In this document: positions 2,429 through 37,187 of the stretch, piece after piece
Position numbering within the stretch: position 1 is the first letter of the stretch
Layout of the letters: the number at the start of each line of letters is the position of its first letter
IMG/VR virus record: IMGVR_UViG_3300045988_075043
Location: 1 to 40,107 of that record
Direction: 5' to 3' (one strand)
From: a virus
DNA length: 40,107 nucleotides
Notes under the pieces: model-generated
Databases searched by the model: none
Seen by the model: only the letters and a program-made list of their open reading frames with translations
Told to the model about the DNA's origin: nothing
Translations under genes and position numbers: made by a program

Positions 2429-3043
2429 TTAGCCGTTCCACCGGCTGTACTTCCCGTTGTCCTCGTGAATGCCCCAGCTGTACAGCCCCAGACCGCCCCG
2501 CCCGGGGATTTTCTCGGCCTGCACCTCCTGCGCTATGGCATACAGCTTCTCCGGGGAGATCGCCCCTGAGAGGTCTACGGCCTGTCCCGTGGTGTGCAGG
2601 GAGTTGGATACTCCGCCCACCTCGGCATTGTGCCGCTTGCACCGCACACCGGAATTCACGTTCAGGGGCACTCCCGCCCGGCGGCGTATCTCATCGGCCA
2701 TGCGGACGGTTTCCTCTGCGGGTTCTGCAGGGAAGCCGTTGCAGTATTTCCCGCCGCACTGGCACCGGAACTCCTCACGAGTGAAGTACCGGATATCGTC
2801 CCAGAACGTCCCCGTTTTCGGCGCGTCGCTGCTTTCCGGCTTCTCTACCTTTACCGCCGTCCCGGCAATGGCACCAATCAGCATTTTCTGGGTGGCCGCA
2901 CCCGGTATCCCGTCCACGGTAAGCCCGTAGTCGGCCTGAAACGCCCGAATCGCCCCTTGGGTATTCCTGCCGTCAGCTCCATCGATTGCGCCGGGAGAAT
3001 AGCCCAGATAAGTCAACAGGCATTGAATTTGCTTTACCGTCAT
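2429..3043 (-). CDS. Endolysin: PG_binding_1 domain plus M15-type zinc peptidase
   Basis: LGYSPGAIDGADGRNTQGAIRAFQADYGLTVDGIPG, then FTREEFRCQCGG...SGVRCKRHNAEVGGVSNSLHTTGQAVDL. The start was moved to MTVKQ, which has an SD. Confidence 0.85.
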   Translation of the reverse strand: MTVKQIQCLLTYLGYSPGAIDGADGRNTQGAIRAFQADYGLTVDGIPGAATQKMLIGAIAGTAVKVEKPESSDAPKTGTFWDDIRYFTREEFRCQCGGKYCNGFPAEPAEETVRMADEIRRRAGVPLNVNSGVRCKRHNAEVGGVSNSLHTTGQAVDLSGAISPEKLYAIAQEVQAEKIPGRGGLGLYSWGIHEDNGKYSRWNG

Positions 3044-3489
3044 ACGTTCACCTCTTCCCAGCCCTGAGGGTATGCGGACGGCGACCATACATTATTGTCC
3101 AACGTGGAGCGATACACTTTACTGCCCTCCGTGCAGCAGTCGCCCTTATTGTAGGGGCTGGTAGCCATAGCGACGAACGGCAACGCTTTCGCTGGGTCTG
3201 TGCTCCAAGCAAACCCCCACTGCGCTGGAAGTTCCTCTGGCTCCTGAGTGTAGATAGTGCTGTCATAGGGCTGCACAAGCCGCACCACACGGCCAGCAGA
3301 CGATTGACACACAAACCCGGCCTTGCGCTCCAGCATGTTTTTGTTTGCGACAGCAGCCTTGAAACTGGGAATGTCGCTATCCGTCGCGTTCAGTTCGGTG
3401 CCTGTCATGTCCGGGGCTTTCTCCTGCAAGGCGAGCGCGTTCGCCCGTCCCTGAGCATACATGATGCTTTTTCTTTCTTCCTGGGTCAC
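3040..3489 (-). CDS. Hypothetical protein with CBM5/12-like C-terminus (149 aa)
   Basis: YNKGDCCTEGSKVYRSTLDNNVWSPSAYPQGWEEV fits the aromatic pattern of small carbohydrate-binding modules. GTG start. Confidence 0.55.
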   Translation of the reverse strand: MTQEERKSIMYAQGRANALALQEKAPDMTGTELNATDSDIPSFKAAVANKNMLERKAGFVCQSSAGRVVRLVQPYDSTIYTQEPEELPAQWGFAWSTDPAKALPFVAMATSPYNKGDCCTEGSKVYRSTLDNNVWSPSAYPQGWEEVNV

Positions 3490-3611: not shown

Positions 3612-3934
3612 GCGTTATTCACCCCCAGAGCAACTTCGATTTCAGTCAACGCAGATTCATATTCGGCATTCTGAGCAACAACCGTCTGGTATTGCTCCCG
3701 CTCATACTCCCGCTGGGCGGCGTCTAACTCTGCCCACGGCTTCCACGGGGCAATCATCTCACCGGTGAACACCACGCCATCGGCACGCGTCCACGTCTGG
3801 CCCGCTGGGATGAAGCGATAGCCCTGAATATAAATATTGCACTTATCGTCGAAGGCATCCGTTTCAATCTGCGTCAGCCCCTCAGCGGTGGAGGTGTGGC
3901 ACTTAAAGCTGGAATCTATGTAAATCGTTTTCAT
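3608..3934 (-). CDS. Hypothetical protein (108 aa), fibre/lysis junction
   Basis: SD TAGGAGG plus ATG. Clean composition. No family recognised. Confidence 0.65.
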   Translation of the reverse strand: MKTIYIDSSFKCHTSTAEGLTQIETDAFDDKCNIYIQGYRFIPAGQTWTRADGVVFTGEMIAPWKPWAELDAAQREYEREQYQTVVAQNAEYESALTEIEVALGVNNA

Positions 3935-3945
3935 GAGCCATCCTC

Positions 3946-4824
3946 CTATTTCATCAATTTTATTTCCGTCGCGGTGTACGTAATCGTCAAATACGCGGTA
4001 TGGTTACCGCCAAAACCGATACTGTGGAGCCCGGACAGGGCAGATATGTCAACCGTTACCGTGGTTAGATCGGTACCGATTGCTGTCGAAGCAACTACGG
4101 ACGAACCACTGTACACCTCCAATTTTGTATCGGAGCCGCCCGACGCTTTGCACGTCGCTTGAAGCGTGCTATACTCTGTCAGGTCAATTTGGCCTTTTGT
4201 ACGTGCAGAAATGAGTCTGTTGTTGTTGAAGTTATTTACCGACTTAACCGTCAATTCTGCTTCTGCAGTTACAGCGCTGTTCGCAGGCATTTCCCACTCA
4301 CCGGCTATAATGTCGCTCGGGGCATTTGGTTTGAACAGGAACAACGCATAGCTCAGCTCCACAGAGGTGCTCTGACCATCCGTGGTGATAGTTACGGCCT
4401 TGCTGTCGGTCTCCGTCCCGCTTGTGGAGGTCACCGTCCACGTCCCGGCGTTCGGCACAATGCAAGCCCATGTACCGCTAGTATCAGGGGCGGATAGAGT
4501 CGTTGTGCCGTCAGAGCAAGTGCATGTCGAACCAGCGGGATAGGTGATGTTGATGGTGGCCGCGAAAAACGCAATCACGGTTGAATAATCGGTTGTGACC
4601 ACAACATTCTTTTGGGCGGTCTTGCCGTCACTGGTGATGGTAACAGTCCACGTCCCGGTTGCAAGTCCCTTGAAGACCACCACGCCGCTCGTGCCGGAGT
4701 TTTTGGTCTTCGTCTTGCCGTCCTTGGAAACAGTCACAGTGACGTTCGCCGGGGCTGTGACGGTAAGGGTGCCGCCTGCACCGCCGCTGGCACCAAATCC
4801 ATATAAAGGCACTGCAATGCTCAT
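3946..4824 (-). CDS. Putative receptor-binding/tail fibre protein, beta-rich with duplicated Ig-like units (292 aa)
   Basis: Thr/Gly/Val-rich with repeated GTWTVT(I/S)TS motifs. It follows the fibre gene and is translationally coupled to it. Confidence 0.55.
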   Translation of the reverse strand: MSIAVPLYGFGASGGAGGTLTVTAPANVTVTVSKDGKTKTKNSGTSGVVVFKGLATGTWTVTITSDGKTAQKNVVVTTDYSTVIAFFAATINITYPAGSTCTCSDGTTTLSAPDTSGTWACIVPNAGTWTVTSTSGTETDSKAVTITTDGQSTSVELSYALFLFKPNAPSDIIAGEWEMPANSAVTAEAELTVKSVNNFNNNRLISARTKGQIDLTEYSTLQATCKASGGSDTKLEVYSGSSVVASTAIGTDLTTVTVDISALSGLHSIGFGGNHTAYLTITYTATEIKLMK

Positions 4825-5417
4825 ACGTACACCTCCACCGTGATCGGAATGTTCACCGTGGGCTTGTCCTCAAGGCAGGTAAACGTCAGCACGCCGCCTG
4901 ACCGGGAAGCGAAGCTCACCATCCCGCACGCCTCTTTCAGCGCGACATTGGTAGACGTGTCGCTTCCATACGCCGGATAGGCCATAGCTTTCTTTGCGTC
5001 CGTCAGGCCTGTGATGGTCACAGACTGGACATACGGAGCACTGCCAGCCCACCCGGCAACGGTCAGTGTTGCGGAGACGGAAACCGTCTTTACGCCGTTC
5101 AGAGCCGTGTCCACGTAGCCCTTGTTCGCCGCATCGGCATTGCCCGACGGCACACCCAGCCCCGTGACCTTGTTCCCGCTCATGGCGATATTCCCGGTCA
5201 TGGTGCCGCCCGTTCTGTCCAGAAGGCCGTCGGTACTGACGACATAGTCGTTGATGGCAGGAACGACCTTTTCGTTTATGAACTTCTTGATGGCGATTCC
5301 CGCCTCGTCGAACTTTGCCTTGAATCCCGCCTCGGTGAGGCCGTCATCCACATTGGGGCGCCTGCCCAGCTTCTGAATGACCTCCATATCGGCGGTCAGT
5401 TCCGGTATCTTTGCCAT
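4821..5417 (-). CDS. Tail fibre protein (198 aa)
   Basis: GGTMTGNIAMSGNKVTGLGVPSGNADAANKGYVD is a classic fibre N-terminal motif. Confidence 0.7.
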   Translation of the reverse strand: MAKIPELTADMEVIQKLGRRPNVDDGLTEAGFKAKFDEAGIAIKKFINEKVVPAINDYVVSTDGLLDRTGGTMTGNIAMSGNKVTGLGVPSGNADAANKGYVDTALNGVKTVSVSATLTVAGWAGSAPYVQSVTITGLTDAKKAMAYPAYGSDTSTNVALKEACGMVSFASRSGGVLTFTCLEDKPTVNIPITVEVYV

Positions 5418-7121
5418 TTATGCTCCCTCCCTGTTCAGCGCCCTTTGCAGCGCTCCGTTTCCGCCGCCGCCATTGACGGGCATATCCTCCGATGTGGTCT
5501 GGACGCTCATTCCCGTTCCCGGATTCCCGGAGGGAGCGCCGGCCATGGCCGCCGCTTCAAAATCGTCCAGAAGCTCCTGCTTCTTGGTGATATAGCCGTT
5601 GGGGAGCCGTTCAATGTACTGCTTCGGCGTGATCAGATGGTTCATGAGAAGATTGTCCAGCGTCTGCATGGAGGCCATTTCCGACCAGTAGGAACAGGCG
5701 CCAACGTCCTGCTTGATGGCCATTTGCAGCTCCTTCAGAACGCTGAAATCGAACGGCCGCATAAAGGTCTGCTTGGGCAGCTGCATTCCCAGGGGCTGCT
5801 CACCGGGCTTGTCCATGTCCAGGGAAGTCTCCACCATACGGGTGCCGTACTTCGCCGCCATCATGTCAAGCCAGATTCTTCCCGCTTCCTCCATGCACTG
5901 GTAGTCGTTCTGCTTGGTCAGCTCCATGGGGGTGTTGGCCGCCCGCTGCAAGGCGATAATCGCACTTGTGGTCTCAATCCGGGAGTCGCCCATGGCCACG
6001 TCAGACGCGCCCAGCAGAGAGTGGGTCTTGTCAAAGCTCAGCTCGATAAACTGGGCAATCTGGGGGCTGACGGACGCGCCGTCGATGATCTTTGCCACAT
6101 TGGTCACGTCTCCGGAAATGCCGATGGCCGTTCCCACGCTGCCGTCCCAGCGCTTGATCTTGTTTCGGTCATAGACCACCTTTGGGAACGCCGTGGTCAG
6201 AAGGGAGATGCCCACAAGGGCGAACATCTTGTTGATAAACTTCTGGTTGGGCAGCATTCCGGTGACCAGCGCCTGACCGTGGTAGCAGTCCCGGATATAG
6301 TCCCAGTTAATCCAGATCAGCGGATACAGGCTGTAGCCGGTGTCATAGGCCTTCCGAAGAATGCCCTTCTCCGTGCTTTCCACGCACCAGATGGTGCGGG
6401 TGTCCCGGTTCCGGAAATAGTAGGTCAGCACCGTCACCTTGTCGTCGGTGTAGCTGTCGTATTTGTTCTGGAACTTATCGGAATCCGCCGTAATGCTGTC
6501 CGGGTCGTCGATGCCGCACTGCCCGGCCTTTTTCAGCTCCTCCGCCCGCCATTGGACGTCCTCCACCAGCTCCCGGCGCACAAGGACGATCCAGGGCTGA
6601 CGCTGGACATCCCGGCAATTGGGGTTGCCGAACAGAACCCGGAGGTTGTCCACAATCTCCGCCACGATCTCTCCCTTGACATCCTGGCCGTTTTCAATGG
6701 TGGGGTCAAAGTAGAAGTGCATACAGCCGTCGCCGGTAACGGCGGCGTTGCGCAGAAACTCCCGGTTTTTGGCCACGATCCGGTTGCGCTCGATAATGGC
6801 GGCAAACTGGTGGTTGATGATCTCGGCGAAGCCTTCCAGCTCTCTCTGGGTATACCGGGAGGTGGAGGGCATGGGCGTCACCTGAATGGTCATGTTGTCC
6901 GAGGTAATGGTGGACACCTGAAAGTTGATGATCCGCTTGAACATGTTGTAGGTGGGGGTAGGCAGGCCGTTGCTCTCCACGCCCTCCCATTGATTTCCTA
7001 TGAAGAAATCCTCGTTGACCTTCACCGTGTCATACAGACCGATCTGCTGGTTGAAGCCGTAGGCCTTTTCGTAGCGCTTCTGGATTTCCTCATTGGTGGG
7101 AATCTTCTGTTTTCCGCTCAT
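5418..7121 (-). CDS. Portal protein (567 aa), P22-portal-like N-terminal pattern
   Basis: Supported by size, by position beside the capsid genes, and by NEDFFIGNQWEG...FKRIINFQVSTITSDNMTIQVTP, which resembles the P22 gp1 N-terminal region. Confidence 0.65.
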   Translation of the reverse strand: MSGKQKIPTNEEIQKRYEKAYGFNQQIGLYDTVKVNEDFFIGNQWEGVESNGLPTPTYNMFKRIINFQVSTITSDNMTIQVTPMPSTSRYTQRELEGFAEIINHQFAAIIERNRIVAKNREFLRNAAVTGDGCMHFYFDPTIENGQDVKGEIVAEIVDNLRVLFGNPNCRDVQRQPWIVLVRRELVEDVQWRAEELKKAGQCGIDDPDSITADSDKFQNKYDSYTDDKVTVLTYYFRNRDTRTIWCVESTEKGILRKAYDTGYSLYPLIWINWDYIRDCYHGQALVTGMLPNQKFINKMFALVGISLLTTAFPKVVYDRNKIKRWDGSVGTAIGISGDVTNVAKIIDGASVSPQIAQFIELSFDKTHSLLGASDVAMGDSRIETTSAIIALQRAANTPMELTKQNDYQCMEEAGRIWLDMMAAKYGTRMVETSLDMDKPGEQPLGMQLPKQTFMRPFDFSVLKELQMAIKQDVGACSYWSEMASMQTLDNLLMNHLITPKQYIERLPNGYITKKQELLDDFEAAAMAGAPSGNPGTGMSVQTTSEDMPVNGGGGNGALQRALNREGA

Positions 7122-7463: not shown

Positions 7464-8540
7464 TCAGGCCTGATCCTTTGCCGCGACGGCGGAGTTGAAC
7501 ATGCCAGCCTTTGCCGCATAAGCCCGCAGGCGGTCGCCGCTGGTCAGGGTGACGGCGGCGGTGTAAGCCTTGGCCTCCACGGAATACCGGGGGTCAGAGC
7601 CGTCGGTGGTGTAGTAGACGGTGGCGCCGCTGGTGGTGGTCTCAATGGTGGCAGCCTTGCCGCTCATGGTGATGGTGGGAGTTTTCACCACGGTGCTGGG
7701 TGCGCAGGCCACAAGGACGCCGTCGGCCTTCTTGCCCAGGACAAAGGCGTCGTACATCATACGGAACTCGATCAGATCGCCGGACAGGCCGGGAGGATCA
7801 ACGTGGCCCTTGAAGTCCTTGATCTTCATGGGGGAGATGACGGACTTCTTGTGCAGGATCATGAACACCACGTTGGCGGGCATCCGGTCGTTGGACATGG
7901 GCAGAACGTTCATGCCGGAAATCTGACCCACGGTGCCCTTGGGCAGGGTCTTGCCGCCCAGAGAATCCAGGTTGACCCACTGCTTCGCCAGCTGGAGGGT
8001 GTCCAGATACTCGTAGGGAATCAGCAGACTCACGTCGCCCTTGACGCCCTTGTCCCGCTGCTTGTTTCGCGCCTTGATGATGTAGCCGATGATGGTGTCG
8101 GTGGTGGGGGCTGCCGTCAGCTCCTCGTGCATACCGGCGTTTTCCGCCCACTTTTTCAGGCGGTAGGTGTCTACCTCGGGGATGATATGCTCCTCCCGTT
8201 CCGCCTTCATGATGGCGCCGACCTTGTGCTTGTCCATGACCTCCATGTTGTTGCCCTTATCCACGGACAGGCTCAGGGACTTGTCCTGAGTCATGGTGAA
8301 GGTCTGCTCCTCGTTGCCCACTTCCTTGGTGTCGCCGTACCGGCTGCCGGTACCCACGCCCTTGGTGCGGTCGTAATCCTGAAGGGGCTCGGTTCTCAGG
8401 CTCTTGACATGGACGGTCTTCACGCCGGAAAACTCCATGTCCAGACTGTGGTCAAAGAGGCCGTCGGTCTCGGATGCCTTGTCGAAGCCCTCCATCAGGG
8501 CGACCTTGTACTTTTCGTCAAAATGAATGGTTGCGCTCAT
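7464..8540 (-). CDS. Major capsid protein with C-terminal Ig/CHB_HEX_C-like decoration domain (358 aa)
   Basis: Strong SD. It lies directly downstream of the scaffold gene. The C-terminus SGATVYYTTDGSDPRYS...AYAAKAGMFNSAV matches the chitobiase C-terminal/Fn3-like motif. Confidence 0.75.
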   Translation of the reverse strand: MSATIHFDEKYKVALMEGFDKASETDGLFDHSLDMEFSGVKTVHVKSLRTEPLQDYDRTKGVGTGSRYGDTKEVGNEEQTFTMTQDKSLSLSVDKGNNMEVMDKHKVGAIMKAEREEHIIPEVDTYRLKKWAENAGMHEELTAAPTTDTIIGYIIKARNKQRDKGVKGDVSLLIPYEYLDTLQLAKQWVNLDSLGGKTLPKGTVGQISGMNVLPMSNDRMPANVVFMILHKKSVISPMKIKDFKGHVDPPGLSGDLIEFRMMYDAFVLGKKADGVLVACAPSTVVKTPTITMSGKAATIETTTSGATVYYTTDGSDPRYSVEAKAYTAAVTLTSGDRLRAYAAKAGMFNSAVAAKDQA

Positions 8541-9586: not shown

Positions 9587-10972
9587 TTACCCCATGATGT
9601 AGCTCCGGCTCAGGCCGCTGCCGCACATGGCCGTCTGATAGTCCATGCCTCCCTCTTCCTCGTCGTCCTCGGTTTCCTCCCGCTCCCGTTCTCCGGGGAG
9701 AACGTAGGTCTGGGCAAAGTATCTCAAAGCGTCGGGTCCGTGGGTCAGCTCATGGGGGTTCTTGCTGACGTCGTTGGGGTCTGTCTTGTCGTGCTGCAAA
9801 CACTTGATGCACTCGATCAGGCTGCCGCAGGTGTCGAATATGATAAGCCCCGGCCTTCCGTCCTCCCGGAGCTTAAAAAGCTCCTTAAGAGCGTACCAGC
9901 CCTGCTTCCGGTTGTTGTCCGCCTTGACCAGGCCAACCCCGTTTTCGGCGAAGGTAGCCGCCTGGGTCTTGCCCGTCTCCCGGCTCCGCGCCCACATATC
10001 CGGCGGGGAAATGGTAAAGTCGATATTCTCATCCGGCCTTGTCAGCTCCAGCTGCTTTCTCGCCGCGTCGGAAACCACCATGTTGCTCTGGGCAAACTGC
10101 CGGTAGACGTAGCATCGTCCGGTTTCGTCCACCGCAACCCAGATGCAGAAGAACATGTCGAGGCCGTAGTCCATGGCGCGGTAGCGCTGCCAGTTCGGCT
10201 TCAGGGGGAAGGGCTTGCAGGTGTGGATGCCGTCGGTAAACTCGTCGAAGTACACCCCTGCCAGGGCGTTCCAGTCGCCGTACCGATGCGCCCGCCGGAC
10301 GTCCTCGGGCAACAGCTCCAGCTGCTTGACGTAGTCCGGGTTCGCCTCCATCAGGTCTTTGTTGTCGTCCACCGTAGCGGGGATGAAAACATAGTCCTTC
10401 GGGTTCTCCCCGGTCTTGAACTGCCGGTCTATGAACAGCCGCTTCACCCAGAAATGACCGGGCCCACCGGGGTTGCAGGTCAGGTAAATCCGCTTGGGTA
10501 TCCTGTTCGCGCCACGGACGATACCCGCCAGCCCTCGGAACTCGCTTTCCAGGAACTGGGTCGCCTCGTCGATGAACAGCCACTCGTATTCCTGACCCTG
10601 GTATTTACCCTGCACCGCCGCGCCGTAGCCGGGCATGTTGCCGAACTTGATCTTTGACCCGTTGGCAAAGGTAATGACATGGTCGGACTTGTTGTAGTTG
10701 AACGTCCCCGGCGCTAGGATTTTCAGCATGGGGTCAATGAGCGTTCCCTCCATGTCCCCGTATTCCCGCCGGAGGATCAGTATCCGGATTCCCGGGTAGG
10801 TGTAAGACCCCAGCGCCGCCTTGCGTACCACTGACCAGGACTTGCCGCCGCCTCTTGCGCCGCCGTAGCAGGTGTACTTGGCCGTGCTCAGGAAAAATTT
10901 CCACTGCGGTTCCGAATTGGGCGAACCGATATTCACTTTTACAGCGCTCTCAGCCGCCTTTTTTGCCACCAT
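9587..10972 (-). CDS. terL: Terminase large subunit (461 aa)
   Basis: Walker A YGGARGGGKSW, Walker B LFIDEATQ, and C-terminal nuclease-type acidic motifs. Confidence 0.9.
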   Translation of the reverse strand: MVAKKAAESAVKVNIGSPNSEPQWKFFLSTAKYTCYGGARGGGKSWSVVRKAALGSYTYPGIRILILRREYGDMEGTLIDPMLKILAPGTFNYNKSDHVITFANGSKIKFGNMPGYGAAVQGKYQGQEYEWLFIDEATQFLESEFRGLAGIVRGANRIPKRIYLTCNPGGPGHFWVKRLFIDRQFKTGENPKDYVFIPATVDDNKDLMEANPDYVKQLELLPEDVRRAHRYGDWNALAGVYFDEFTDGIHTCKPFPLKPNWQRYRAMDYGLDMFFCIWVAVDETGRCYVYRQFAQSNMVVSDAARKQLELTRPDENIDFTISPPDMWARSRETGKTQAATFAENGVGLVKADNNRKQGWYALKELFKLREDGRPGLIIFDTCGSLIECIKCLQHDKTDPNDVSKNPHELTHGPDALRYFAQTYVLPGEREREETEDDEEEGGMDYQTAMCGSGLSRSYIMG

Positions 10973-11214: not shown

Positions 11215-11306
11215 TGGCGGAACAGGCAGGACTCGAACCTGCACACCGGAATCCATCGGTGAACGGATTAGCAATCCGCCGCAGTACCTGTTATGCTTAC
11301 TGTCCC
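11215..11306 (-). tRNA. tRNA-Ser (anticodon GCU), class II with long variable arm, CCA encoded
   Basis: Hand-folded. Acceptor GGGACAG/CTGTTCC, anticodon loop TTGCTAA, variable-arm stem CACCG/CGGTG, T-arm GCAGG-TTCGAGT-CCTGC. Confidence 0.85.
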
Positions 11307-11311
11307 GTATT

Positions 11312-11387
11312 TGGTGCTGGTGGCTGGGGTCGAACCAGCTCCCTGCGCCTTATCACGACGCCGCTCCGCCTGTTGAGCTACACCAGC
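11312..11387 (-). tRNA. tRNA-Ile (anticodon GAU), CCA encoded
   Basis: Hand-folded. Acceptor GCTGGTG/CACCAGC, D stem GCTC/GAGC, anticodon loop GTGATAA, T-arm GCTGG-TTCGACC-CCAGC. Confidence 0.85.
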
Positions 11388-12750: not shown

Positions 12751-12779
12751 TTGACATATGGGATATCCCATGATATAAT
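12751..12779 (+). promoter_or_regulatory. Consensus promoter with a palindromic operator in the spacer
   Basis: TTGACA (12751-12756), 17 nt, TATAAT (12774-12779). The spacer contains the perfect 14-bp palindrome ATGGGATATCCCAT (12758-12771). Confidence 0.8.
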
Positions 12780-12810
12780 GAAGCTACCCTAAAGGAAAGG
12801 AGGGCAACAC

Positions 12811-12957
12811 ATGGGACAGACAGACAGCCAATTCAAAGCGTTCATCCGTTTCGTGCTTGATGCTCTGCGCGAGATTGCAGCAGAAAAGGACGAAGAAAAG
12901 AGAGCCGCCAAGATGGAAAAGGTGCTGGACAACCTCCAGAAGACCTTAGAGGACTAA
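12811..12957 (+). CDS. Small helical protein (48 aa)
   Basis: SD AAAGGAGGG plus ATG. MGQTDSQFKAFIRFVLDALREIAAEKDEEKRAAKMEKVLDNLQKTLED. Confidence 0.6.
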   Translation: MGQTDSQFKAFIRFVLDALREIAAEKDEEKRAAKMEKVLDNLQKTLED

Positions 12958-13008
12958 GAGAGGGCGGGGGCGAGCAATCGCCCCACCTTCAGAAAAAGGA
13001 GGGCAGAC

Positions 13009-13176
13009 ATGGCAGACAGCCAAGCAAAAGCGTCGTGGGAAAAAGAAAATGTGCTGAAGGTGCTTGTAAAGGTTAATAAAAACCAGAATCCGCAATTATT
13101 CGACTTGTTGCAAAAAGCTGATAGCAAATCAGGTTTAGCCCGCGAACTTATGAACAAGGCAATCAAAGACAAATAA
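13009..13176 (+). CDS. Small ribbon-helix-helix-like protein (55 aa)
   Basis: SD AAAGGAGGG plus ATG. A beta-strand-like NVLKVLVKV is followed by two helices (PQLFDLLQKA, GLARELMNKAI). Confidence 0.55.
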   Translation: MADSQAKASWEKENVLKVLVKVNKNQNPQLFDLLQKADSKSGLARELMNKAIKDK

Positions 13177-13295
13177 AAAATCCGTGCAGATGCGGCAACA
13201 CCTGCACGGGAAGCCCACAAGACCCAGTACCATCCAAGTCAAGGAGCAATGTTATTATAACCTCCTTGACCAGCAAAATCAAGGAGGAATTTTTT

Positions 13296-14297: not shown

Positions 14298-17200
14298 TCA
14301 CACAAGTTTCCCTTTATACAGCTTGTAGAACATCTGCGCTTCCTCGCTGGAATACCCCAGCGCCACCCATGCGGCGATCATGTCCGCCTTCTTGGTGAAC
14401 TCCTGAGTGACTCCATAGGTCTGCGTAAACTGCTCCGCGGAATACCCCCTGCCCCGGAGATAGGCATACTTGAGTTCCGTCTTGTTGGGCTTCTCTGCCT
14501 CGGGGTCATAGTCCGGCATATACAGCAGCATGACCCTGTCTTTTTCCTTGTCGCTCAGGCCGTCCAGCGCCGCGATATAGCCCCATTTGTCCCGGTTGGT
14601 AACGGTGGCCTCCCCTGTGTCCTTGTCCACGCTGCCGGTGCCCTGAAGGTCAGCAAGCCCCTTAATGATCCGGTCTGCCACGTCGGAGGAAAGCCCGGAT
14701 TCCGTCATGGCGTCGAACTTCTCCGTTTCAATGGGGAATGTCTGCCGGAAAACCATCTTGTCCTTGAGGGCGTCGTGGGCGGCCTTGGTGATCTGGCCGG
14801 ATTCATAGGCATTTCCCAGTGTCCGCGCCCATTCCTGCGCCTTGTCCTTTCCGGCCATCCCGGAATTGCCGTCCAGATTCTTGTAAACCCCGTACAGGCT
14901 TGCAAACGTCTCACCGCTTACGCCGTTCTCCCTGGCGGTTATGTAGTACCCGATTCTGCCGCCGGTGCCGTTCTTAAATTCCTGCTTCTGGGCTTTCCCC
15001 AGGGATTCATAAATGCTGTAGGCCTGCCCCAGCGCCTCCGGCTCCATGGTGTCGAACGCCTTGGAAAATTCCGATCTCACCAAATCCTGCATAATGCTGT
15101 TTTCCACGGTTTTAGCGTCCTTCGGGCTGTCCGTCGTGTAATCGGAAACCGCCGCCCGGGCGTGTTCCGTGGCGTAGGTCTTCGCCCGGTTCAGGGCATT
15201 CGCTTTCTGCTCGTCCGAAAGATTCCGGAATGCTTCACTGCCCATCAGCCCGGTGTAATAGCTGCTCACCAGCTCGCCATAGGTCTTTTGGTAGGTTTCC
15301 CTTGCCTCGCCGTCCAGATTGACCGTCTCACCGTTTACATGGATAGACATGGGTGCCTGTCTGTCCGGGATAAAGCTGGTGTCACCGTCAAGGCTCCCGC
15401 TCAGTTCTTCCAGATAGTTTGTCACGTCGTTCTTGCGGTAAGTCTGGGTTTTCGTCGGGTCGACAAACGTATTGAAGAACCCGCCCCGCTCCTGCGCCTC
15501 TCCCAGTCCGCTGTATTTCTTCGGAAGGGTCTGGGACAGGAACGGAAGTCCGGCGATGATGTTGTTTATGGCATACTCCGCCGAGGTCTCCCCCCGGGTG
15601 TCCCTGTAGTATCCGTCGGTAAGCTGTGCCGTCTGCCTGACAAACTGCGGAATAAAGCTGCCGGCGGTATCTCCGGCATACCCGGCCAGTTCGTCCATTA
15701 TGCCGGAAGCATCGTCCGCTTCAACAACACCGCTTATTAAATCAACCCCACCGGACAAGCCGGTCATCATGGGGCTGTCCATCAGAGAATTGAACACAGA
15801 TTTCACGGTTGCAAACGGATACGCTTTCAGCATGTCGGCAACGCTGTCCTCTTTGGAAAGCTCATACCCGAGATATAGCTGGGTATTGAACGGCTCCAGG
15901 AAGTCCAGGCTTGTGATAATGTCCCCGTCCTGCCATTCCGAACTCCCGCCGTCCAGTCCTCTTTTGAGGGCGCTCCAATTGATTTGTGCGCCGCTTCTCC
16001 CTTCGGCCTGTAAAAGTGCCTTTTCGTCCTTGTCCTTCGGCTCATTGACCTTTACAACGCCGGTTGCAGCCGCCGCTGTAAACATGGCAATCATTCCGAC
16101 GCCGCTTAAGCCCCGGCCAAAGTCGGAAGCTACCTGCCTCTGCCGGGCAACGTCGATTTCCTTTCCGGCTTTCGCATCCTTTATGAGGGAAATAGCTTCC
16201 CCGACGCTCTTAACAACGCCCGCCGAATAGTCAATGCCCGTCTGGGTCACGTTCATAGGCACCGACGCGAACGGAATCACGGCATCTACTGCGGCTTCTC
16301 CCGGTTTCCCGAAAATATCCCCTGCGCCTCTTTTGAACCCCGCCGCCGCTCTGGAAAGATCAGAGCCACGAGTTTTGCCGTCGCTGTCTTTCCATGTTGC
16401 ATCCTTGAATGTCCGCCGGTTCGCGGTGAATTCGCTCAGCTGCGCGATCTGTTCCTCTGTAAGGTTCGCATTTTTCAGGTTGTTCAGGCTTTCGGAAATC
16501 GCCGCATTCGTTCCGCCCTCAAAGATTTTGTCCGTTACCTCAAGGTTGTAGCTCATATACTTCTGGAATGCGTACATGGCGCGCATAGCAACGTTGCCGG
16601 TGGAGCGGAAAGTCCTGCCCATGTATTTCCCGCTGCCGCCGTCGCCCATAGCTGTGGAAAGGGAGGCGCCCGCGCCCGTTTCAATCGGGATGTTCAGCTC
16701 CACACACAGCGACGCGAAGCTTGCCGCGTCCGCTGCGCCTTTTGCATAGGCCTTCACATTCTTGAAGTCGTTTCCCACAGTCTTCCGGCCTGTGAACTTA
16801 GACAGAACCGCATCCATCATCCTTCCGCCGGTGCTGTCGCTTGCGGAATCCATCAGCCCACCGAAGGAGTTGCCCGTGATATTTCTTGCAAACGTTTTAA
16901 GGCTTGCAAGCATATTCTGTTTCCGGATTCCCATGGCAATTTCCGTCTTCGTCCGCGCCCGGAAATCATCCGACATTGCCGCGATCTGGGCGTTTGCAAC
17001 CGTCTTAAGGTCGTCAAAATCCATTTTCCCAAGAATCCGTTCTGCTGTTCCTGTCAGATTCTGAGATGTGCCGAACCACGCCGTTGTATTCCTTTCCCTG
17101 GCGATCTGGCGGATAATGTCCCGCATTCCTGCGCTGTCTCCGTCATCCACCAATTCAACCGCAATTGCAATCCGGTCAATATTTTTTGCTATGTCCTTCT

Positions 17201-20200
17201 GCCACTGCTTGTAGGTTTCTCCGCCTTCCTTCTGCCGGAATGTGGAATCCTCCCGCTTCATGTCAAGAATGGCGTTCCGTGCCCGTTGCGCGGCGGTCAT
17301 TGAATCCTGCAAATCTGCCATTGTCCCGGAAATGGCGAATGCCTGCGTGACCTGTCCGGCGTTCGTCCCGATTTCCCGGATTTTCATATTCATTTCCGTG
17401 ATCTGGTTCTGTGCGCCGTCAATTTCAGAGTGTACCAGATTCTTGGTCACATATTTGGCGGTCAAAAGGTCTTCCGCCGTCCATGCGTCCTTACCCATAA
17501 GGTAGTCATATTCCGCCTGAACCTTTTCCGGGGTACTGGTTCTTTCCTTTGCCGTGGCCGTGGTGTCCGCGTTGTGCTTGACGTCGTAAATTCCGGCATC
17601 CGGGTTTCCCTTGACCATCTGCTTATAGCCCTGCCGGATGTCCGCGTCCTTGCTGTGAAGTCCGGTGTTGCTTACCGTCCGCGATACTTCCAAATCCCCG
17701 GACGGCTCATTCTGCATTCCCACCGTGTCCACAGACTGTCCGCCCCCCGTGGACTTCCCGGAACTGTCCTCCACCTGTGGACTGCTCTTTCCCATCAGGG
17801 AATCCCGGTAGGCCAAGGCGGCGTCATAGTCGTTCTTGCCGTAGGTGGGCAGTGCCGCCAGCTGGTCATCCGTGATCTTCGGGTAAGTACCCATCTTTTG
17901 GGCGACGGTGTCCGCGCTGTCCCCGTTGTGCTTCATCACGTAGATGTACGGCTCGCCCTTGTCCGGCGTCCACCCCTCGTTGGCGTAGGTCTTGTTGAAC
18001 TCCACCCTTGCCACCGGTTCAAAGCCATATTTGGCGTAGAGTTTCGCAAGCCCTTCCCCGTAGCAGTCCAGCCGGTCGCCGCCCTGCTCAATGGCAATGG
18101 GCATCATGGTGTCAAGGGCTTTCGGGGGCCCTCCGTTCTTGTTCTTGAAAACCGCCACAATGTCCCCGTCCGGAGCAATACCCACGCCCACCGTTCCGTT
18201 GTCGTTCATGAAGGTTCGGACGTTGCCGTCTTTCAGCTGCTGGGCGGATTTCGGCGTAACGCACCAGCCGTTTGCCGGGTCGGAGTTTCGCCCTGCGGTC
18301 AACGCCTGCTCATAGCTTACCGGGTCGGCGGTGGTGTCCCTTACGGCATAAGTCGGTGTTCCCCGCTGCCTCTGGGCTTCCTGTAATTTGTCGCTTACGC
18401 GAAGCTCTCCAGAAACTCGTAGGTCATTTTGAGAAGCGCCGCCTCCGGATTCTCCTTGTACGCCTCCCGGAACCACTTGGGTTCCCGCTTCCATTCCTCC
18501 GGGTGCTTGTCCAGATACTGGCAATGCTCCCGTGTCTGCTCCAGAAACCCGTTCGGTTCCAGTTCCTCCGGGTAGTCCCGTTCCATCAGTGCCTTGTAAT
18601 CCCGTTCCATTTTCCGTACCTCCCTGTATCGGATTCCCGTTAATAGCATTATAATTCCCGTCAGTGCCGGTGTCAACGCCCAGAACCCGGTCAAAGGCAT
18701 TTTGCACCGCCTGCCGTTCCGGCGTGACCTCCGGCGTTTCCTGCCTTGCAGGCGCTCTTTCCGCCAGCTCCTGCCCCATGTCCTCGATCAGGCTCTGCGC
18801 CCCCTCCCGGTTCAGGGTTGTGGTGGCGGTGTCCCCGGCCAGCTGCCGGACGGCTGCCTTTACCGCGTTCCGCTTCTCCGACGCCGTGGCCATTTGGGAC
18901 AGGTCAAGCCCCGTCTGCCGGGAAAGCTGCTCCATGGCTGCCGGGTCTGAAAGAATCTTCTCCACGGTCTTGTTGCTCACGTTCCCCGTTTCCGCCAGCT
19001 TGTCCAGTGCGTTTGTGAGCGCATTCCCCACCTGTGGTGTCCCTGCCGCCTCCGCATCAGGGCTTTGTGCTTTCGTGGTGTCAGTGGACGTTTCCGGTGA
19101 AATCCCCGCCTGTGGGTTCCCTGCGGTCTCCTGCGCGTTCTGAGAGGCATTCGTCTTTGCCTCTGCCCTTGCAACGGCATTGCTGTACACGATAGCAGTA
19201 AGGCCGGACAGACCGCCGGACAGACCGGAGACAAAGGCGGTTTCCTTTGCCTCGTCCACGATGGCCTTGGCCGCCGCCGCTTTCGCATCGGCGTAGGAAT
19301 AGCCGTCAACCACAAGCTGCTGAATGGCCCGGTTGTACTCGCTCTTTTCCTGTAGAATGGCCGCTTCGGCAAGGGTGCTGCCAACCAGGCTCGCTTCTTC
19401 CTCGCTGATCTCCACACCGGCCTGACCGATGGTGTTCAGCAGGAACTTGGTCAAATCCTTGGTAGCCCCCGCCTTGGCCTTGTCCAGCAGCTTGTCCATG
19501 GATACCTTTTCCGTCAGGACTTCCAGTATGGCGTTGACCGTGCCCATGCCGTAGGCCTGGGCAGGGGTAGCGCCCTTCTGGGTGGCTTCCCGGACACCGG
19601 ACGCAAAGGAATCCATAGCAACCGCGCCAAGGGAGGCGGTGGGACCCAGGACAGCCAGCCGGGTCAGGGAATCCGCCGTGGACATAGCCGCCTGATAGCC
19701 GTAGCCCAAAGCGTTTCTTACGACGTTGTCCCCTTCGCCCACGATATTCTTTCCGGTTTCCTCCCGGACTGCGTCGTAGTAGATGGAAGCAAGGTCATTC
19801 GACCGCACCGGTTCAAGCGTGGGATACCGCTTGGGACTAATGAGTTCGCCCACTCTGCCCATGAATGCGTTCGGCGTATTCAACAGCTTGCCGCCAACGG
19901 ATTCTATGCTCTTTCCAATGGCTCCGGGTACGGTAGACACATCCTCGGCGGCTTTCGCCATTTTCTCCTCCGCCTGCCGCTCATGAAGATCCCATGAGTA
20001 GGCGGCAACCATGGCGTCGAAGGCATCCCTGCCGTACTTGTCCACCAGAGGTTGACTCGCCTTGTCCATTCGGGTTGCCGCAAGTAAGGAAGAACCGCCG
20101 CTTCCGAAATGTGCCCAGAAATTTTCGGATATATCTTTGTTCTCGACATAATCCGCCAGCAATTTCCGGTCTTCCTCCGGGAGAGCGTTCACCTTCGCCA

Positions 20201-20624
20201 TATCCTGCTGGCGCATACGGGCGGTAATGGCTTTTTCCTGTTCGTTTTTCCAATAATCCGCCTTAGCTTTCAGCCCCTTGGATGTTTCGTCCTCGAATAC
20301 CTCCGTCATCTGCGGCGCATTCCGGGGAACCTCCGACATGGGAGTATTCCGCGTCAGCTTTGTCGCCGCCTCCTGCTTGCGCTGCTGGAACTCCTGAGAA
20401 TTCACATAGTCGTCATACTCTTTCTGGGCAAGAGCCGCGTTTTTCCTGTAACCTATGGCCTCATTGTCAAGCGCGACCAGAGCGTCCCGGTATTCCCGCT
20501 GCGATTTCTCCCTCTCCACCGGATTGTATGTGCCGCTGAGCTTTTTCACGGACTGCACCCGTTGATATTCCCTATTCGCTTTCTCCCTGATCTTCCCCCA
20601 TGATTCGTCCTTCGTAACCGCCAT
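14298..20624 (-). CDS. Giant virion/ejection (polyvalent-type) protein, 2108 aa, with a GNAT-fold-like segment
   Basis: SD AGGAGG plus ATG at 20624. Uninterrupted ORF. Residues of about 785-900 (nt about 17925-18270) read ...DRLDCYGEGLAKLYAKYGFEPVARVEFNKTYANEGW. One TM-like stretch, GVGMIAMFTAAAATGVV. Confidence 0.75.
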   Translation of the reverse strand: MAVTKDESWGKIREKANREYQRVQSVKKLSGTYNPVEREKSQREYRDALVALDNEAIGYRKNAALAQKEYDDYVNSQEFQQRKQEAATKLTRNTPMSEVPRNAPQMTEVFEDETSKGLKAKADYWKNEQEKAITARMRQQDMAKVNALPEEDRKLLADYVENKDISENFWAHFGSGGSSLLAATRMDKASQPLVDKYGRDAFDAMVAAYSWDLHERQAEEKMAKAAEDVSTVPGAIGKSIESVGGKLLNTPNAFMGRVGELISPKRYPTLEPVRSNDLASIYYDAVREETGKNIVGEGDNVVRNALGYGYQAAMSTADSLTRLAVLGPTASLGAVAMDSFASGVREATQKGATPAQAYGMGTVNAILEVLTEKVSMDKLLDKAKAGATKDLTKFLLNTIGQAGVEISEEEASLVGSTLAEAAILQEKSEYNRAIQQLVVDGYSYADAKAAAAKAIVDEAKETAFVSGLSGGLSGLTAIVYSNAVARAEAKTNASQNAQETAGNPQAGISPETSTDTTKAQSPDAEAAGTPQVGNALTNALDKLAETGNVSNKTVEKILSDPAAMEQLSRQTGLDLSQMATASEKRNAVKAAVRQLAGDTATTTLNREGAQSLIEDMGQELAERAPARQETPEVTPERQAVQNAFDRVLGVDTGTDGNYNAINGNPIQGGTENGTGLQGTDGTGLPGGTGTERVSGADTGALPVSGQAPGGMEAGTQVVPGGVQGESGGGASQNDLRVSGELRVSDKLQEAQRQRGTPTYAVRDTTADPVSYEQALTAGRNSDPANGWCVTPKSAQQLKDGNVRTFMNDNGTVGVGIAPDGDIVAVFKNKNGGPPKALDTMMPIAIEQGGDRLDCYGEGLAKLYAKYGFEPVARVEFNKTYANEGWTPDKGEPYIYVMKHNGDSADTVAQKMGTYPKITDDQLAALPTYGKNDYDAALAYRDSLMGKSSPQVEDSSGKSTGGGQSVDTVGMQNEPSGDLEVSRTVSNTGLHSKDADIRQGYKQMVKGNPDAGIYDVKHNADTTATAKERTSTPEKVQAEYDYLMGKDAWTAEDLLTAKYVTKNLVHSEIDGAQNQITEMNMKIREIGTNAGQVTQAFAISGTMADLQDSMTAAQRARNAILDMKREDSTFRQKEGGETYKQWQKDIAKNIDRIAIAVELVDDGDSAGMRDIIRQIARERNTTAWFGTSQNLTGTAERILGKMDFDDLKTVANAQIAAMSDDFRARTKTEIAMGIRKQNMLASLKTFARNITGNSFGGLMDSASDSTGGRMMDAVLSKFTGRKTVGNDFKNVKAYAKGAADAASFASLCVELNIPIETGAGASLSTAMGDGGSGKYMGRTFRSTGNVAMRAMYAFQKYMSYNLEVTDKIFEGGTNAAISESLNNLKNANLTEEQIAQLSEFTANRRTFKDATWKDSDGKTRGSDLSRAAAGFKRGAGDIFGKPGEAAVDAVIPFASVPMNVTQTGIDYSAGVVKSVGEAISLIKDAKAGKEIDVARQRQVASDFGRGLSGVGMIAMFTAAAATGVVKVNEPKDKDEKALLQAEGRSGAQINWSALKRGLDGGSSEWQDGDIITSLDFLEPFNTQLYLGYELSKEDSVADMLKAYPFATVKSVFNSLMDSPMMTGLSGGVDLISGVVEADDASGIMDELAGYAGDTAGSFIPQFVRQTAQLTDGYYRDTRGETSAEYAINNIIAGLPFLSQTLPKKYSGLGEAQERGGFFNTFVDPTKTQTYRKNDVTNYLEELSGSLDGDTSFIPDRQAPMSIHVNGETVNLDGEARETYQKTYGELVSSYYTGLMGSEAFRNLSDEQKANALNRAKTYATEHARAAVSDYTTDSPKDAKTVENSIMQDLVRSEFSKAFDTMEPEALGQAYSIYESLGKAQKQEFKNGTGGRIGYYITARENGVSGETFASLYGVYKNLDGNSGMAGKDKAQEWARTLGNAYESGQITKAAHDALKDKMVFRQTFPIETEKFDAMTESGLSSDVADRIIKGLADLQGTGSVDKDTGEATVTNRDKWGYIAALDGLSDKEKDRVMLLYMPDYDPEAEKPNKTELKYAYLRGRGYSAEQFTQTYGVTQEFTKKADMIAAWVALGYSSEEAQMFYKLYKGKLV
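18395..18610 (-). CDS. Nested +1-frame gene inside the giant ORF (71 aa, acidic/aromatic helical)
   Basis: GGAGG (18619-18623), 8 nt, then ATG at 18610; TAA at 18395-18397. Hand-counted GC3 is about 77% in this frame against about 31% in the overlapping long-ORF frame. Confidence 0.6.
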   Translation of the reverse strand: MERDYKALMERDYPEELEPNGFLEQTREHCQYLDKHPEEWKREPKWFREAYKENPEAALLKMTYEFLESFA

Positions 20625-35346: not shown

Positions 35347-35375
35347 ATAATAGCACTGTTTCGCCTCTTTGTCAA
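35347..35375 (-). promoter_or_regulatory. Early-lytic (PR-like) promoter
   Basis: On the - strand: TTGACA (35370-35375), 17 nt, TATTAT (35347-35352). Confidence 0.7.
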
Positions 35376-35405
35376 CACCTAATTTCAAAAAATTTCCTTT
35401 TCTTG

Positions 35406-35434
35406 TTGACAAAGTAAACAGATTGCGGTATTAT
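35406..35434 (+). promoter_or_regulatory. Repressor (PRM-like) promoter, divergent from PR
   Basis: TTGACA (35406-35411), 17 nt, TATTAT (35429-35434). GTAAACA occurs in its spacer and again at 35339-35345. Confidence 0.7.
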
Positions 35435-35455
35435 ATCATCAAGGAGGTGAAGCAA

Positions 35456-36181: not shown

Positions 36182-36210
36182 TTGACAAATTGTCGGGAAG
36201 TCCGTATAAT
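36182..36210 (+). promoter_or_regulatory. Consensus promoter P2 of the abi locus
   Basis: TTGACA (36182-36187), 17 nt, TATAAT (36205-36210). Confidence 0.75.
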
Positions 36211-37181: not shown

Positions 37182-37187
37182 AAGGGT

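Follow-up and report, generated by a model that had tools for sequence, protein, structure and literature searches.

Inside the gene for a giant protein of a temperate phage, most likely, lies a small independent transcription unit on the same strand and in the +1 frame; from the comparison of sequences, we give this reading a probability of about 0.8. The stretch analysed (40,107 nucleotides, hereafter the window) contains a giant ORF of 2108 aa (14298..20624, minus strand), identified from the ORF list and its translation and of mosaic, multi-domain make-up. The embedded unit would consist of a sigma-A/sigma-70 consensus promoter, a leader of ~30 nt with a GGGAGG motif, and a 71-codon ORF coding for a folded, acidic, helical protein. 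The phage context is made up of genes for TerL, MCP, portal, endolysin and integrase; the giant ORF is close to those for terminase, major head protein and portal, and the endolysin (2429-3088) lies away from it. The same arrangement is present in many related gut phages.

The nested gene (18395..18610, minus strand), a member of a small-protein family called LESFA here, starts with an ATG at 18610-18608, stops with a TAA at 18397-18395 and is wholly contained in the giant ORF, nested codon position 1 falling on giant position 2. An initial inspection of the letters (the sequence-only reading) had proposed that the +1 frame of the giant ORF holds both a complete gene and the coding signal; this was borne out, and the comparative data agree. 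The 71-aa product it had given matches the translation exactly, and the GGAGG with an 8-nt spacer that it had placed before the ATG is present. Its hand count of codons ending in G or C, 54/70 in the nested frame against 22/71 in the long frame, became 55/71 (77%) and 22/72 (31%) upon recounting. The GC3 of the whole giant ORF is 0.69, and with windows of 50 codons the overlap is the sole stretch of the 2108 codons where it falls below 0.5. The composition of the nested gene does not deviate from that of the genome.

The product is small, acidic and aromatic as had been described (8.9 kDa, pI 4.8, 11 aromatic residues). It begins with MERDYKALMERDYPEE, without a hydrophobic N-terminus or a lipobox, and includes the stretch EAYKENPEAALLK as well as DYKALMER and EPKWFR; members of the family range from 42 to 79 aa. 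Structure prediction by AlphaFold, with an alignment of 8 sequences, yielded a confident all-helical fold (AF2 pLDDT 95.3, pTM 0.81), for which Foldseek found no fold match in PDB or BFVD. Searches of the protein against Pfam, NCBIfam, PHROG and PADLOC gave no match, and by blastn the region itself had none among GenBank phages. No RHH or HTH DNA-binding domain was detected by the Pfam, NCBIfam, PADLOC or PDB/BFVD fold searches, no PADLOC or anti-defence match was obtained, and no similarity to known antitoxins, immunity proteins or chaperones was seen.

At least 12 homologues of the small protein were collected, at 38-99% identity (including P0001-8 and P0027-30). A profile search over 1.8 billion representatives added 4 extra 50%-clusters and one spurious repeat protein (P0031), and scans of genome contigs detected relatives in a single MAG, the uncultured Clostridiales UMGS838. 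Substitutions in the nested frame were most frequent at codon position 3, then 1, then 2 (for example 27/18/9), the signature of purifying selection on that frame. The pattern named beforehand as speaking against a nested gene, changes that are silent for the long frame yet break the nested one, was looked for, and the opposite was found. On average, the nested proteins are 56% identical, and the long-frame peptides overlapping them 43%. The SD and ATG are kept in every embedded lineage examined except L047, whose SD is weak. On these comparative grounds, the nested ORF is a real gene under selection at the protein level, and its translation is predicted. The recent fusion of two virion genes, offered earlier as one explanation, does not fit the age of the arrangement: lineages whose small proteins are only ~40-50% identical share it, and positional analogues, described below, occur in phages of other phyla too.

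The sequence-only reading had also pointed to an AT-richer, intergenic-looking stretch ahead of the gene. This stretch holds a 12/12 match to TTGACA-N17-TATAAT (18676-18648), the gene's own candidate promoter, which had been missed; the SD and the ATG of the proposed gene anatomy stand. Likewise, the functional unit drawn at 18395-18660 is real, except for its upstream limit, which reaches the -35 box at 18676. All three signals are on the minus strand and all are also read as protein in the giant frame: the -35 box TTGACA (18671..18676) as Val-Asp-Thr, the -10 box TATAAT (18648..18653), 17 nt further, as Tyr-Asn, and the Shine-Dalgarno GGGAGG (18619..18624), 8 nt before the nested ATG, as Gly-Gly. 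Exact TTGACA-N17-TAYRAT sites number 4 in the whole 40-kb window, for 0.01 expected, and almost all related loci (6-10 kb) contain one only. Among 11 lineages, TTGACA is conserved 6/6, though the residues it encodes vary ([VIL]-D-[TNS]), and the -10 box is TAYRAT; three more lineages have a -10 of TATTAT, a -10 of TATGCT, and TTGCCA-17-TATAAT. Overall the TTGACA, the 17-nt spacer and a TAnnnT -10 box are kept in all embedded lineages examined except L047, with varying flanks, and a consensus-like -35/17/-10 arrangement is present in all of them. GGAGG and a spacer of 7-8 nt recur unchanged in all aligned lineages, and the neighbouring bases diverge. Leaders measure 28, 31, 34 or 37 nt, the differences being all multiples of 3. 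No conserved operator was seen in the promoter spacer, and no terminator was predicted after the small ORF in 18300-18900. From the consensus matches and their conservation, we infer that promoter and SD are functional.

The three other consensus promoters of the window drive an Abi_2 gene, a 6A RNA and an antisense two-ORF moron. The units behind them are accessory or on the lysogeny side. The moron, of the classical type, lies at 12751-13215 (plus strand).

In the giant frame, the dual-use segment comprising promoter, 5′UTR and small ORF (18395..18676, minus strand) is read as an Asn/Gly/Thr-rich flexible linker at giant aa ~650-743, including the stretch VSGADTGALPVSGQAPGGMEAGTQVVPGGVQGESGGGASQNDLR. 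The Gly-rich, low-complexity nature first noted for this peptide is confirmed, with 21 Gly among 72 residues across the overlap. The host frame is indeed open across the nested gene, with 0 stops in every embedded copy for ~3 expected, and all full-length relatives have a continuous ORF of 1944-2145 aa. When synonymous codons were resampled with the nested protein and the phage codon usage held fixed, the long frame was open in 3% of cases; the probability of an open frame per lineage is 0.03-0.045. At the nested third position, T was never found before AA/AG/GA codons (0/244, versus 67/418 elsewhere), these pooled statistics spanning related lineages that are not independent. Of the 15 columns where a T would always be risky, 8 vary and 0 contain a T, compared with 17 T-containing columns among the 33 that are never risky. 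Homologues that are not embedded act as natural controls, and have stops in the long frame, 3 in L057/58 and 1 in L032. It had been remarked that no start or SD for a separate downstream gene is visible; none is conserved, the starts proposed by gene callers being inconsistent and 20-186 nt away, and no conserved internal start for a C-terminal isoform was found after the nested stop. Judging from these biases, the long frame is also kept open by selection across the overlap, and the linker is its predicted product.

Since stops are avoided in the long frame, leaders change in steps of 3 nt and selection acts in the nested frame, we concluded that this is most probably a conserved transcription unit with an overprinted Gly-rich linker. 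Overprinting, or a small cassette read through as a linker, was among the explanations put forward at the outset, and the comparative data favour it. The small frame should be the older reading, because normal codon usage and protein-level constraint sit there; the linker of the giant protein is, by the same signs, the overprinted and younger one. Host RNA polymerase could start around 18641 (minus strand); from the short mRNA so made, the small ORF would be translated free of giant-frame ribosomes. On the long late transcript, giant-frame ribosomes would cross the same DNA; the -35 box would give [V/I/L]-D-[T/N/S], the -10 box Y-[N/D] and the SD G-G, and translation of the small ORF in this frame would yield the disordered, Gly-rich linker. 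The sole detectable constraints on this linker would be that it remains in phase and free of stops, the latter by keeping T out of the nested third position before AA/AG/GA codons.

Complete small genes inside larger ones are known among dsDNA phages. The embedded spanin genes Rz/Rz1 of lambda and 18.5/18.7 of T7 combine a small gene with its own SD and a larger gene of the same strand, in the +1 frame, both being functional. The present gene is alike in being a complete small +1 gene with its own SD and start inside a same-strand larger gene. Rz1 is a lipoprotein, with a signal peptide, a lipobox Cys and a Pro-rich mature part, which acts in lysis together with Rz. The predicted protein described here is instead cytosolic, acidic and helical, without a signal sequence; its host gene encodes a 2108-aa protein of the structural region and not a lysis protein; the unit also has what looks like its own consensus promoter; and it is the small frame that looks ancestral, the linker of the large protein being overprinted. 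Small phages and viruses offer another precedent in their overprinted genes (phiX174 B in A, E in D, and K; MS2 L), which have been reviewed (PMC8227390, PMC3494269). Overprinting in such tiny genomes is usually explained by genome compression. As in these cases, one frame is normal in composition and the other, in keeping with a younger origin, is compositionally odd, disordered and of low complexity. The situation differs in that the phage is a temperate dsDNA phage of 40 kb, the second frame would not create a new protein but a linker stitching together two parts of a giant one, and the promoter elements are dual-coded as well.

What follows the nested gene may bear on its role. A conserved alpha/beta domain, at giant aa ~735-943 (17796..18422, minus strand), comes directly after it and matches PHROG 2563. 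No other part of the giant protein has relatives among GenBank phages; there the domain is annotated as "acetyltransferase" (two phage records) or as "minor capsid protein". Its AF2 model has a pLDDT of 88, and the best Foldseek matches are GNATs, at a weak level (E 0.017, probability 0.8, TM at most 0.43). The domain has no Pfam match, one homologue matching Acetyltransf_7 weakly (E 0.18), and a profile search against PDB sequences returned noise only. As to the whole giant protein, its identity profile against relatives is mosaic, no Pfam match was found over the 2108 aa, MuF domain included, and a sequence search against PDB gave nothing.

The distance from the end of the small ORF to the domain-coding region is 0-45 nt, and the unit is located directly upstream of this same domain in all embedded copies examined but L039. 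Even an unrelated ORF of 43 aa, in L019, is preceded by the same promoter and SD and followed by the same domain, and in L020, a code-25 phage, the unit also precedes it. Two further positional analogues with a dip in long-frame GC3 precede a homologous domain, in the "minor capsid protein" of Microbacterium phages Caron/UtzChips and in a 3125-aa protein of a Limnohabitans phage. In GenBank phages, a homologue of the domain is found at the C-terminus of "minor capsid proteins" adjoining the portal gene, and that of Caron has a VG15 domain. Homology between LESFA and the positional analogues is unproven, because an HMM built on all LESFA size classes does not reach those of L019, L020, Caron and DC33. 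The small gene and the domain also occur together without a carrier (L032, L044-46); L039 keeps the small gene and has no domain, and L057/58 have the small gene alone, next to cellular genes. Co-variation between the class of small protein and the type of downstream domain was considered, proved inconsistent (L041, L039) and was dropped as evidence.

Tentatively, the small protein could be a cognate partner of this weakly GNAT-like domain, whether an inhibitor, an immunity or antitoxin-like protein, or possibly a chaperone. The sequence-only reading had speculated on an anti-defence factor; the findings lean more to a connection with the downstream domain. The conserved position before the domain, the positional analogues, the carrier-free pairs and the accessory-type units behind the other promoters speak for a partner. 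Speaking against it are L039, which lacks the domain, L057/58, where the small gene is alone, a size class that does not strictly co-vary with domain type, the absence of antitoxin or immunity similarity, the weak GNAT assignment, and analogues without LESFA similarity. A comparable layout exists in the type II GNAT toxin-antitoxin pairs TacAT, AtaRT, KacAT and ItaRT: here too a small gene is immediately upstream of a GNAT-like domain, and carrier-free two-gene forms exist (L032, L044). The differences are that the small protein has no RHH/HTH or antitoxin similarity, that the GNAT fold is weakly supported and that toxicity is putative.

If the partner role holds, expression of the small protein would depend on a constitutive promoter of its own and not on the late operon, and the order promoter, small gene, domain would amount to an antitoxin-first cassette, which fusion behind a virion carrier protein would have forced the carrier frame to read across. 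An immunity gene would then precede its effector domain, and therefore the carrier could reach the domain only by translating across that gene in another frame. Constitutive production, in lysogens too, would neutralise the domain during assembly, and would shield lysogens from the same effector ejected by related phages. That such an antitoxin-first effector/immunity cassette was captured by phages of several phyla into head-internal or giant virion proteins is a more doubtful proposal still. MuF polymorphic toxins of temperate phages, with their immunity proteins, have been described (PMC5576092, PMC12226406). The likeness lies in a head-internal virion carrier fused to a variable effector domain and in a mosaic architecture shaped by recombination. 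Against this, no MuF domain was detected in the giant protein, the related domain being found in other phages' "minor capsid proteins"; here the domain sits inside the protein (aa ~735-943 of 2108) instead of at its C-terminus; the candidate immunity gene comes before the domain and is overlapped by the carrier frame, instead of being a separate downstream gene; and the toxin domains found in the cited MuF paper do not include this family.

Other explanations start from the same observations. Morons are cargo units made of a promoter, a gene and a terminator, found in late operons of temperate phages, and the nested unit resembles them by its small, accessory-looking ORF, its own sigma-70-type candidate promoter and its location in the structural, late region of a temperate phage. 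It may accordingly be asked whether it is an intragenic moron: an accessory prophage gene, serving lysogenic conversion, superinfection exclusion or anti-defence, that has no functional tie to the giant protein and lodged in a tolerant linker. The promoter is of consensus, constitutive-looking type without a conserved operator in its spacer, the same temperate phage has other promoter-driven accessory units (Abi_2, the antisense moron, the 6A RNA), and the product is small, acidic and rich in aromatics. The small gene moreover survives intact in contigs with a long ORF that is cut short or frameshifted (L026, L031, L033, L040, L041), and also on its own (L057/58); these "remnant" contigs, however, are low-coverage metagenome assemblies that may contain errors, and a search of the L026 insertion against Rfam gave nothing. 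Compared with classical morons, the unit lies within a gene instead of between two, lacks a terminator and is not deviant in composition, and no PADLOC or anti-defence match was obtained. Its place before the same domain is conserved across phyla, being kept in divergent phages even with an unrelated ORF (L019, L020, Caron, DC33), which is not expected of a random cargo gene. We regard an unrelated cargo gene as unlikely, if still worth serious consideration. A dedicated assembly factor or regulator, chaperone or scaffold for the folding, packaging or ejection of the giant protein, with amounts linked in cis and with a parallel in partner genes that sit inside phage genes (Rz1 in Rz, for example), would explain the strict physical linkage to a giant (or MuF-like) gene across lineages, and the swapping of the module together with the adjoining part of the giant protein in mosaic relatives. 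A late-acting chaperone would need no consensus promoter of its own, however, homologues exist without a giant carrier (L032, L044, L057/58), and similarity to known chaperones is lacking, so that such a role seems distinctly improbable.

The two remaining alternatives deny one or the other reading frame. The long frame might be untranslated across the small gene, the 2108-codon ORF being a chance or artefactual fusion of two flanking genes, and gene callers do often give a small gene followed by a downstream gene with an internal start. Yet no separating stop is present in more than 25 independent assemblies, for which reason an assembly artefact was rejected; indels in the leader come only in multiples of 3; no downstream start or SD is conserved; and stops are avoided (0/244 vs 67/418) in embedded copies, while the non-embedded homologues do have them. 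A frame left open by chance was rejected as well, and we hold an artefactual fusion to be highly improbable. Conversely, the nested ORF might be a decaying relic, a chance ORF, or a segment reached only through a programmed +1 frameshift, which would add its 71 residues to an N-terminal fragment. The nested frame is in fact open for 30 codons upstream of the ATG in the window, but L027/L029 have a stop one codon before the ATG, and the peptides of the upstream nested frame are unrelated, so that a programmed frameshift was discarded. Purifying selection in the nested frame, the confident AF2 fold and the conservation of promoter, SD and ATG leave a relic or a frameshift product hardly credible. 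The reading retained is that of a conserved, embedded transcription unit, overprinted by the linker of the giant protein.

A search of the literature for a gene nested, promoter included, within the coding region of a MuF or giant phage protein returned nothing relevant, its coverage being incomplete and novelty unproven by it. Annotation of dsDNA phages rarely accepts long same-strand overlaps, and gene callers leave out the small gene or cut the giant one in two, which is what happened in public data for these loci. In the present case the comparative signature is clean for either frame, and natural controls exist. A whole transcription unit, promoter included, would be dual-coded with a protein linker, and the usual direction of overprinting would be reversed, the segment of the large protein being the younger reading. 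This suggests that multi-domain giant or polyvalent virion proteins can arise by reading through intervening small genes. An unannotated small ORF is thereby flagged in cultured Microbacterium phages (Caron, UtzChips gene 4), which would open the question to experiment. In Caron, gene 4 spans 3765-5342 of OQ190481, and the nested ORF lies at about 4591-4734. Should the small protein indeed inhibit the downstream domain, this would be a new effector-immunity architecture in human gut phages; and if the cassette reading were true, it would represent a new architectural solution for pairing toxin and immunity, and a new class of ejected phage effectors.

The window is a temperate phage coding for a portal (5418-7121), a major head protein (7464-8540), a large terminase (9587-10972), an endolysin, a replication initiator and an integrase; it is close to gut viral contigs of IMG/VR and to one contig that belongs to an uncultured Clostridiales MAG. 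The phage encodes two tRNAs, Ser(gct) and Ile(gat), at 11215-11387 (minus strand), shortly before the large terminase gene in the sense of transcription. The giant ORF occupies 14298-20624 on the minus strand (2108 aa). A sequence-only reading had reported a gene nested in its +1 frame, under a Gly-rich linker, and every detail was borne out: the ATG at 18610, preceded by GGGAGG with a spacer of 8 nt, opens a minus-strand ORF of 71 codons that ends with the TAA at 18397-18395. The contrast in codon usage that it had described was likewise confirmed, as GC3 over the overlap is 55/71 in the nested frame versus 22/72 in the giant frame. Over its full length the giant ORF has a GC3 of 0.69, and in 50-codon windows the value falls below 0.5 at one place only in 2108 codons, the overlap with the nested gene.

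Comparison shows the small ORF to be a genuine gene. Searching 5.8 billion proteins with a word index gave eight homologues, 68-99% identical and already called as proteins of 71-78 aa (one of 93 aa), and a profile search of 1.8 billion representatives gave four more at about 50% identity. The exact small protein is present on 42 contigs, and named in none of them. Differences between lineages rank, by nested codon position, third > first > second (27/18/9 between the window and the related locus L001), which makes the third position of the giant frame the least variable. Over identical nucleotides, mean identity is 56% for the small protein versus 43% for the overlapped giant-frame peptide. 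AlphaFold2, run with eight sequences only, predicted a compact six-helix fold (pLDDT 95.3, pTM 0.81); no match to the model was found in PDB or BFVD, nor to the protein in Pfam, NCBIfam, PHROG or PADLOC. Shorter relatives of 42-49 aa and 55-56 aa occur at the same position in other phages; they share an N-terminal [YW]PE[EY] motif and a C-terminal LESF[AGYD]-stop, and one HMM joins them to the 71-79-aa class.

The stretch that had been called intergenic-looking turned out to be a perfect match to a TTGACA-17-TATAAT promoter (18676-18648, minus strand), 37 nt upstream of the nested ATG. Eleven diverged lineages share TTGACA (6/6) as -35 box, a spacer of exactly 17 nt and TAYRAT as -10 box, while the surrounding bases and the encoded residues, [V/I/L]-D-[T/N/S]...Y-[N/D], differ; what is constrained is thus the DNA sequence rather than the giant protein. 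Additional lineages have TATTAT, TATGCT, or TTGCCA-17-TATAAT. In most related loci of 6-10 kb, the promoter pattern is matched exactly only at the site before the small gene. The aligned lineages all have GGAGG 7-8 nt from the ATG; one lineage, L047, has a degenerate -35 box and only a weak SD. The leader, non-coding for the small gene, is 28, 31, 34 or 37 nt long and always leaves the giant frame in phase. No terminator was predicted downstream of the small gene. Judged from sequence, the nested gene with its promoter and SD is a complete transcription unit.

Exact TTGACA-N17-TAYRAT sites number four in the 40-kb window, against 0.01 expected by chance, and the other three serve accessory or lysogeny-side units. 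One (36182-36210) drives an Abi_2 gene (AbiD/F-like abortive infection, 36304-37164, plus strand, Pfam E 1e-51), placed in the lysogeny module beside HTH regulators (35369-35824, 37515-37985) and the integrase gene (38817-39944). Another, a 12/12 consensus, directly precedes a candidate 6A sRNA (RF02925, 68 bits, 37153-37253, plus strand). A candidate skipping-rope sRNA (RF02924, 57.8 bits, 38738-38808, plus strand) lies immediately upstream of the integrase gene. The third site, TTGACA-17-TATAAT with an operator-like perfect 14-bp palindrome (ATGGGATATCCCAT) in its spacer, belongs to a classical-looking moron antisense to the late genes (12751-13215, plus strand), with two ORFs (12811-12957, 48 aa; 13009-13176, 55 aa), each with a strong SD, and a hairpin around 13183-13215; neither ORF matched Pfam.

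The giant frame across the small gene is also under selection, as its pattern of stops argues. Not one stop was found there in any embedded locus, that is, where the small gene lies within the giant gene (>25 assemblies from about 14 lineages, with small-protein identity as low as 38-51%), and full-length relatives are continuous ORFs of 1944-2145 aa. When synonymous codons of the small gene were resampled with the phage's own usage, about 3 stops were expected and the giant frame was open in only 3-4.5% of trials. Such a stop requires a nested codon ending in T before a codon starting with AA, AG or GA; T was found at 0/244 stop-creating positions versus 67/418 elsewhere (Fisher 6e-15, the lineages not being independent). 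Among always-risky columns, 8/15 are variable and 0/15 contain T, versus T in 17/33 never-risky columns. Non-embedded homologues, which are natural controls, do carry giant-frame stops (3 in L057/L058, beside SfsA/HAD genes, and 1 in L032), in agreement with this selection. Codon usage, conservation and disorder, the customary criteria, mark the small gene as the older reading and the linker as the overprinted one; the 21 Gly among its 72 residues arise because G-ending codons precede GA/GG codons in the acidic protein.

The giant protein is strongly mosaic: between the window and L012, L014, L017, L018 and L019, phages otherwise close, stretches of 90-100% identity are interspersed with others of 10-35%, which indicates frequent module exchange within one ORF. 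L014-L018 are ~95% identical to the window as far as the SD, then switch to another class of small gene followed by a segment that is 62-67% identical, high identity resuming ~115 residues after the switch. Within the giant protein, relatives in GenBank phages exist for one domain alone, that immediately following the small gene (aa ~743-919). They are stand-alone and annotated 'acetyltransferase' in Streptomyces phages, the C-terminal part of a 'minor capsid protein' encoded beside the portal gene in Microbacterium phages and a Methanobrevibacter virus, and part of a 3125-aa protein in a Limnohabitans phage. The domain had no match in Pfam; its AF2 model (pLDDT 88) best resembles GNAT acetyltransferases, weakly (E 0.017, TM <= 0.43).

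A +1-frame small ORF just before this domain was also found in very distant phages. L019 (domain 45% identical) has TTGACA-17-TATGAT, AAGGAGG and an unrelated 43-aa ORF, and L020, a 34%-GC phage reading TGA as Gly, has TTGAAA-16-TATAAT and a 56-aa ORF. Gene 4 of Microbacterium phages Caron and UtzChips contains a 47-aa ORF where giant-frame GC3, otherwise ~0.93, drops to ~0.5; in Limnohabitans phage DC33 the ORF is 71 aa long and likewise coincides with a GC3 dip. The small ORFs of L019, L020, Caron and DC33 have no detectable sequence similarity to the LESFA family, that of the nested protein. The evidence for these analogues is suggestive rather than conclusive; they may share an ancestor with that family but have diverged too far to be recognised, or may have arisen independently. 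In Caron (L042, OQ190481), the ORF (locus positions 2151-2294, MALPITEEERLAFLRRQEP...ILSGW) is unannotated inside the 'minor capsid protein' gene, with an AT-rich TGATAAAGT motif and GAAAGG upstream, and is conserved in UtzChips (L053). In L020 (IMGVR_UViG_3300006564_000294), in-frame TGA occurs throughout genes, and one aligns to Gly (YIYVMKHN[TGA]D versus YIYVMKHNGD in the window), indicating genetic code 25 and a host of the Gracilibacteria/Absconditabacteria type; the giant ORF of L020 is unbroken once TGA is read as Gly.

In several metagenome contigs (L026, L031, L033, L040, L041, L044-46, L047-50) the small gene is intact and its promoter is often present too, but the long ORF around it is truncated or frameshifted, or borders on cellular genes (DAHP synthase, a tRNA-like sequence); they may be prophage remnants keeping the small gene, or low-coverage assembly errors. 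In L026 an insertion of ~190 nt (2578-2770; no Rfam match) separates the -10 box from the SD, and there are two tandem small genes and a broken long ORF. Two tandem small genes lie within one open long frame in L008 (1-147), and in L056 (213-540) the promoter is preceded by part of another copy of the GNAT-like domain.

Promoter, SD and small ORF are thus all read through by the giant ORF, and both readings are shown, at the level of sequence comparison, to be under selection; chance, an artefact or a frameshift are, even together, very improbable accounts. Host sigma-A polymerase would initiate near 18641 (minus strand) and yield an mRNA with a short leader, from which the small protein would be translated independently of the late operon and of giant-frame ribosomes. 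The late transcript would give the giant protein, with the dual-coded segment as a flexible linker.

As for function, we tentatively prefer (probability about 0.35) a role for the small protein as cognate partner to the GNAT-like domain that follows it, be it as an inhibitor, an immunity factor or a factor of antitoxin type. Exactly such overprinting would be unavoidable if a cassette with the antitoxin first were fused to the rear of a virion carrier; GNAT type II TA pairs have this gene order and MuF polymorphic toxins (PMC5576092, PMC12226406) follow this logic, although the small protein lacks an antitoxin fold and the giant protein a MuF domain. Small gene and domain occur together without the carrier in L032 and L044-46. 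The small gene occurs without the domain in L039 and L057/58. An intragenic moron unrelated to the domain is a possible but rather unlikely reading; unlike a moron, the unit is not intergenic and has no terminator. That the small protein is an assembly chaperone seems improbable.

Embedded +1 genes, such as Rz1 in Rz, and morons are already known. So is overprinting in small phages (reviewed in PMC8227390, PMC3494269). The nested unit is not a strict member of any of these classes, and its protein, unlike Rz1, has no lipoprotein or spanin features. No description of such an arrangement was found in the searchable literature, which is incomplete in coverage. What is new is the combination, a whole promoter-bearing transcription unit beneath a protein linker; the polarity, the segment of the large protein being the younger reading; the conservation backed by natural controls; and the recurrence, across phages of several phyla, of this placement ahead of a single domain family.
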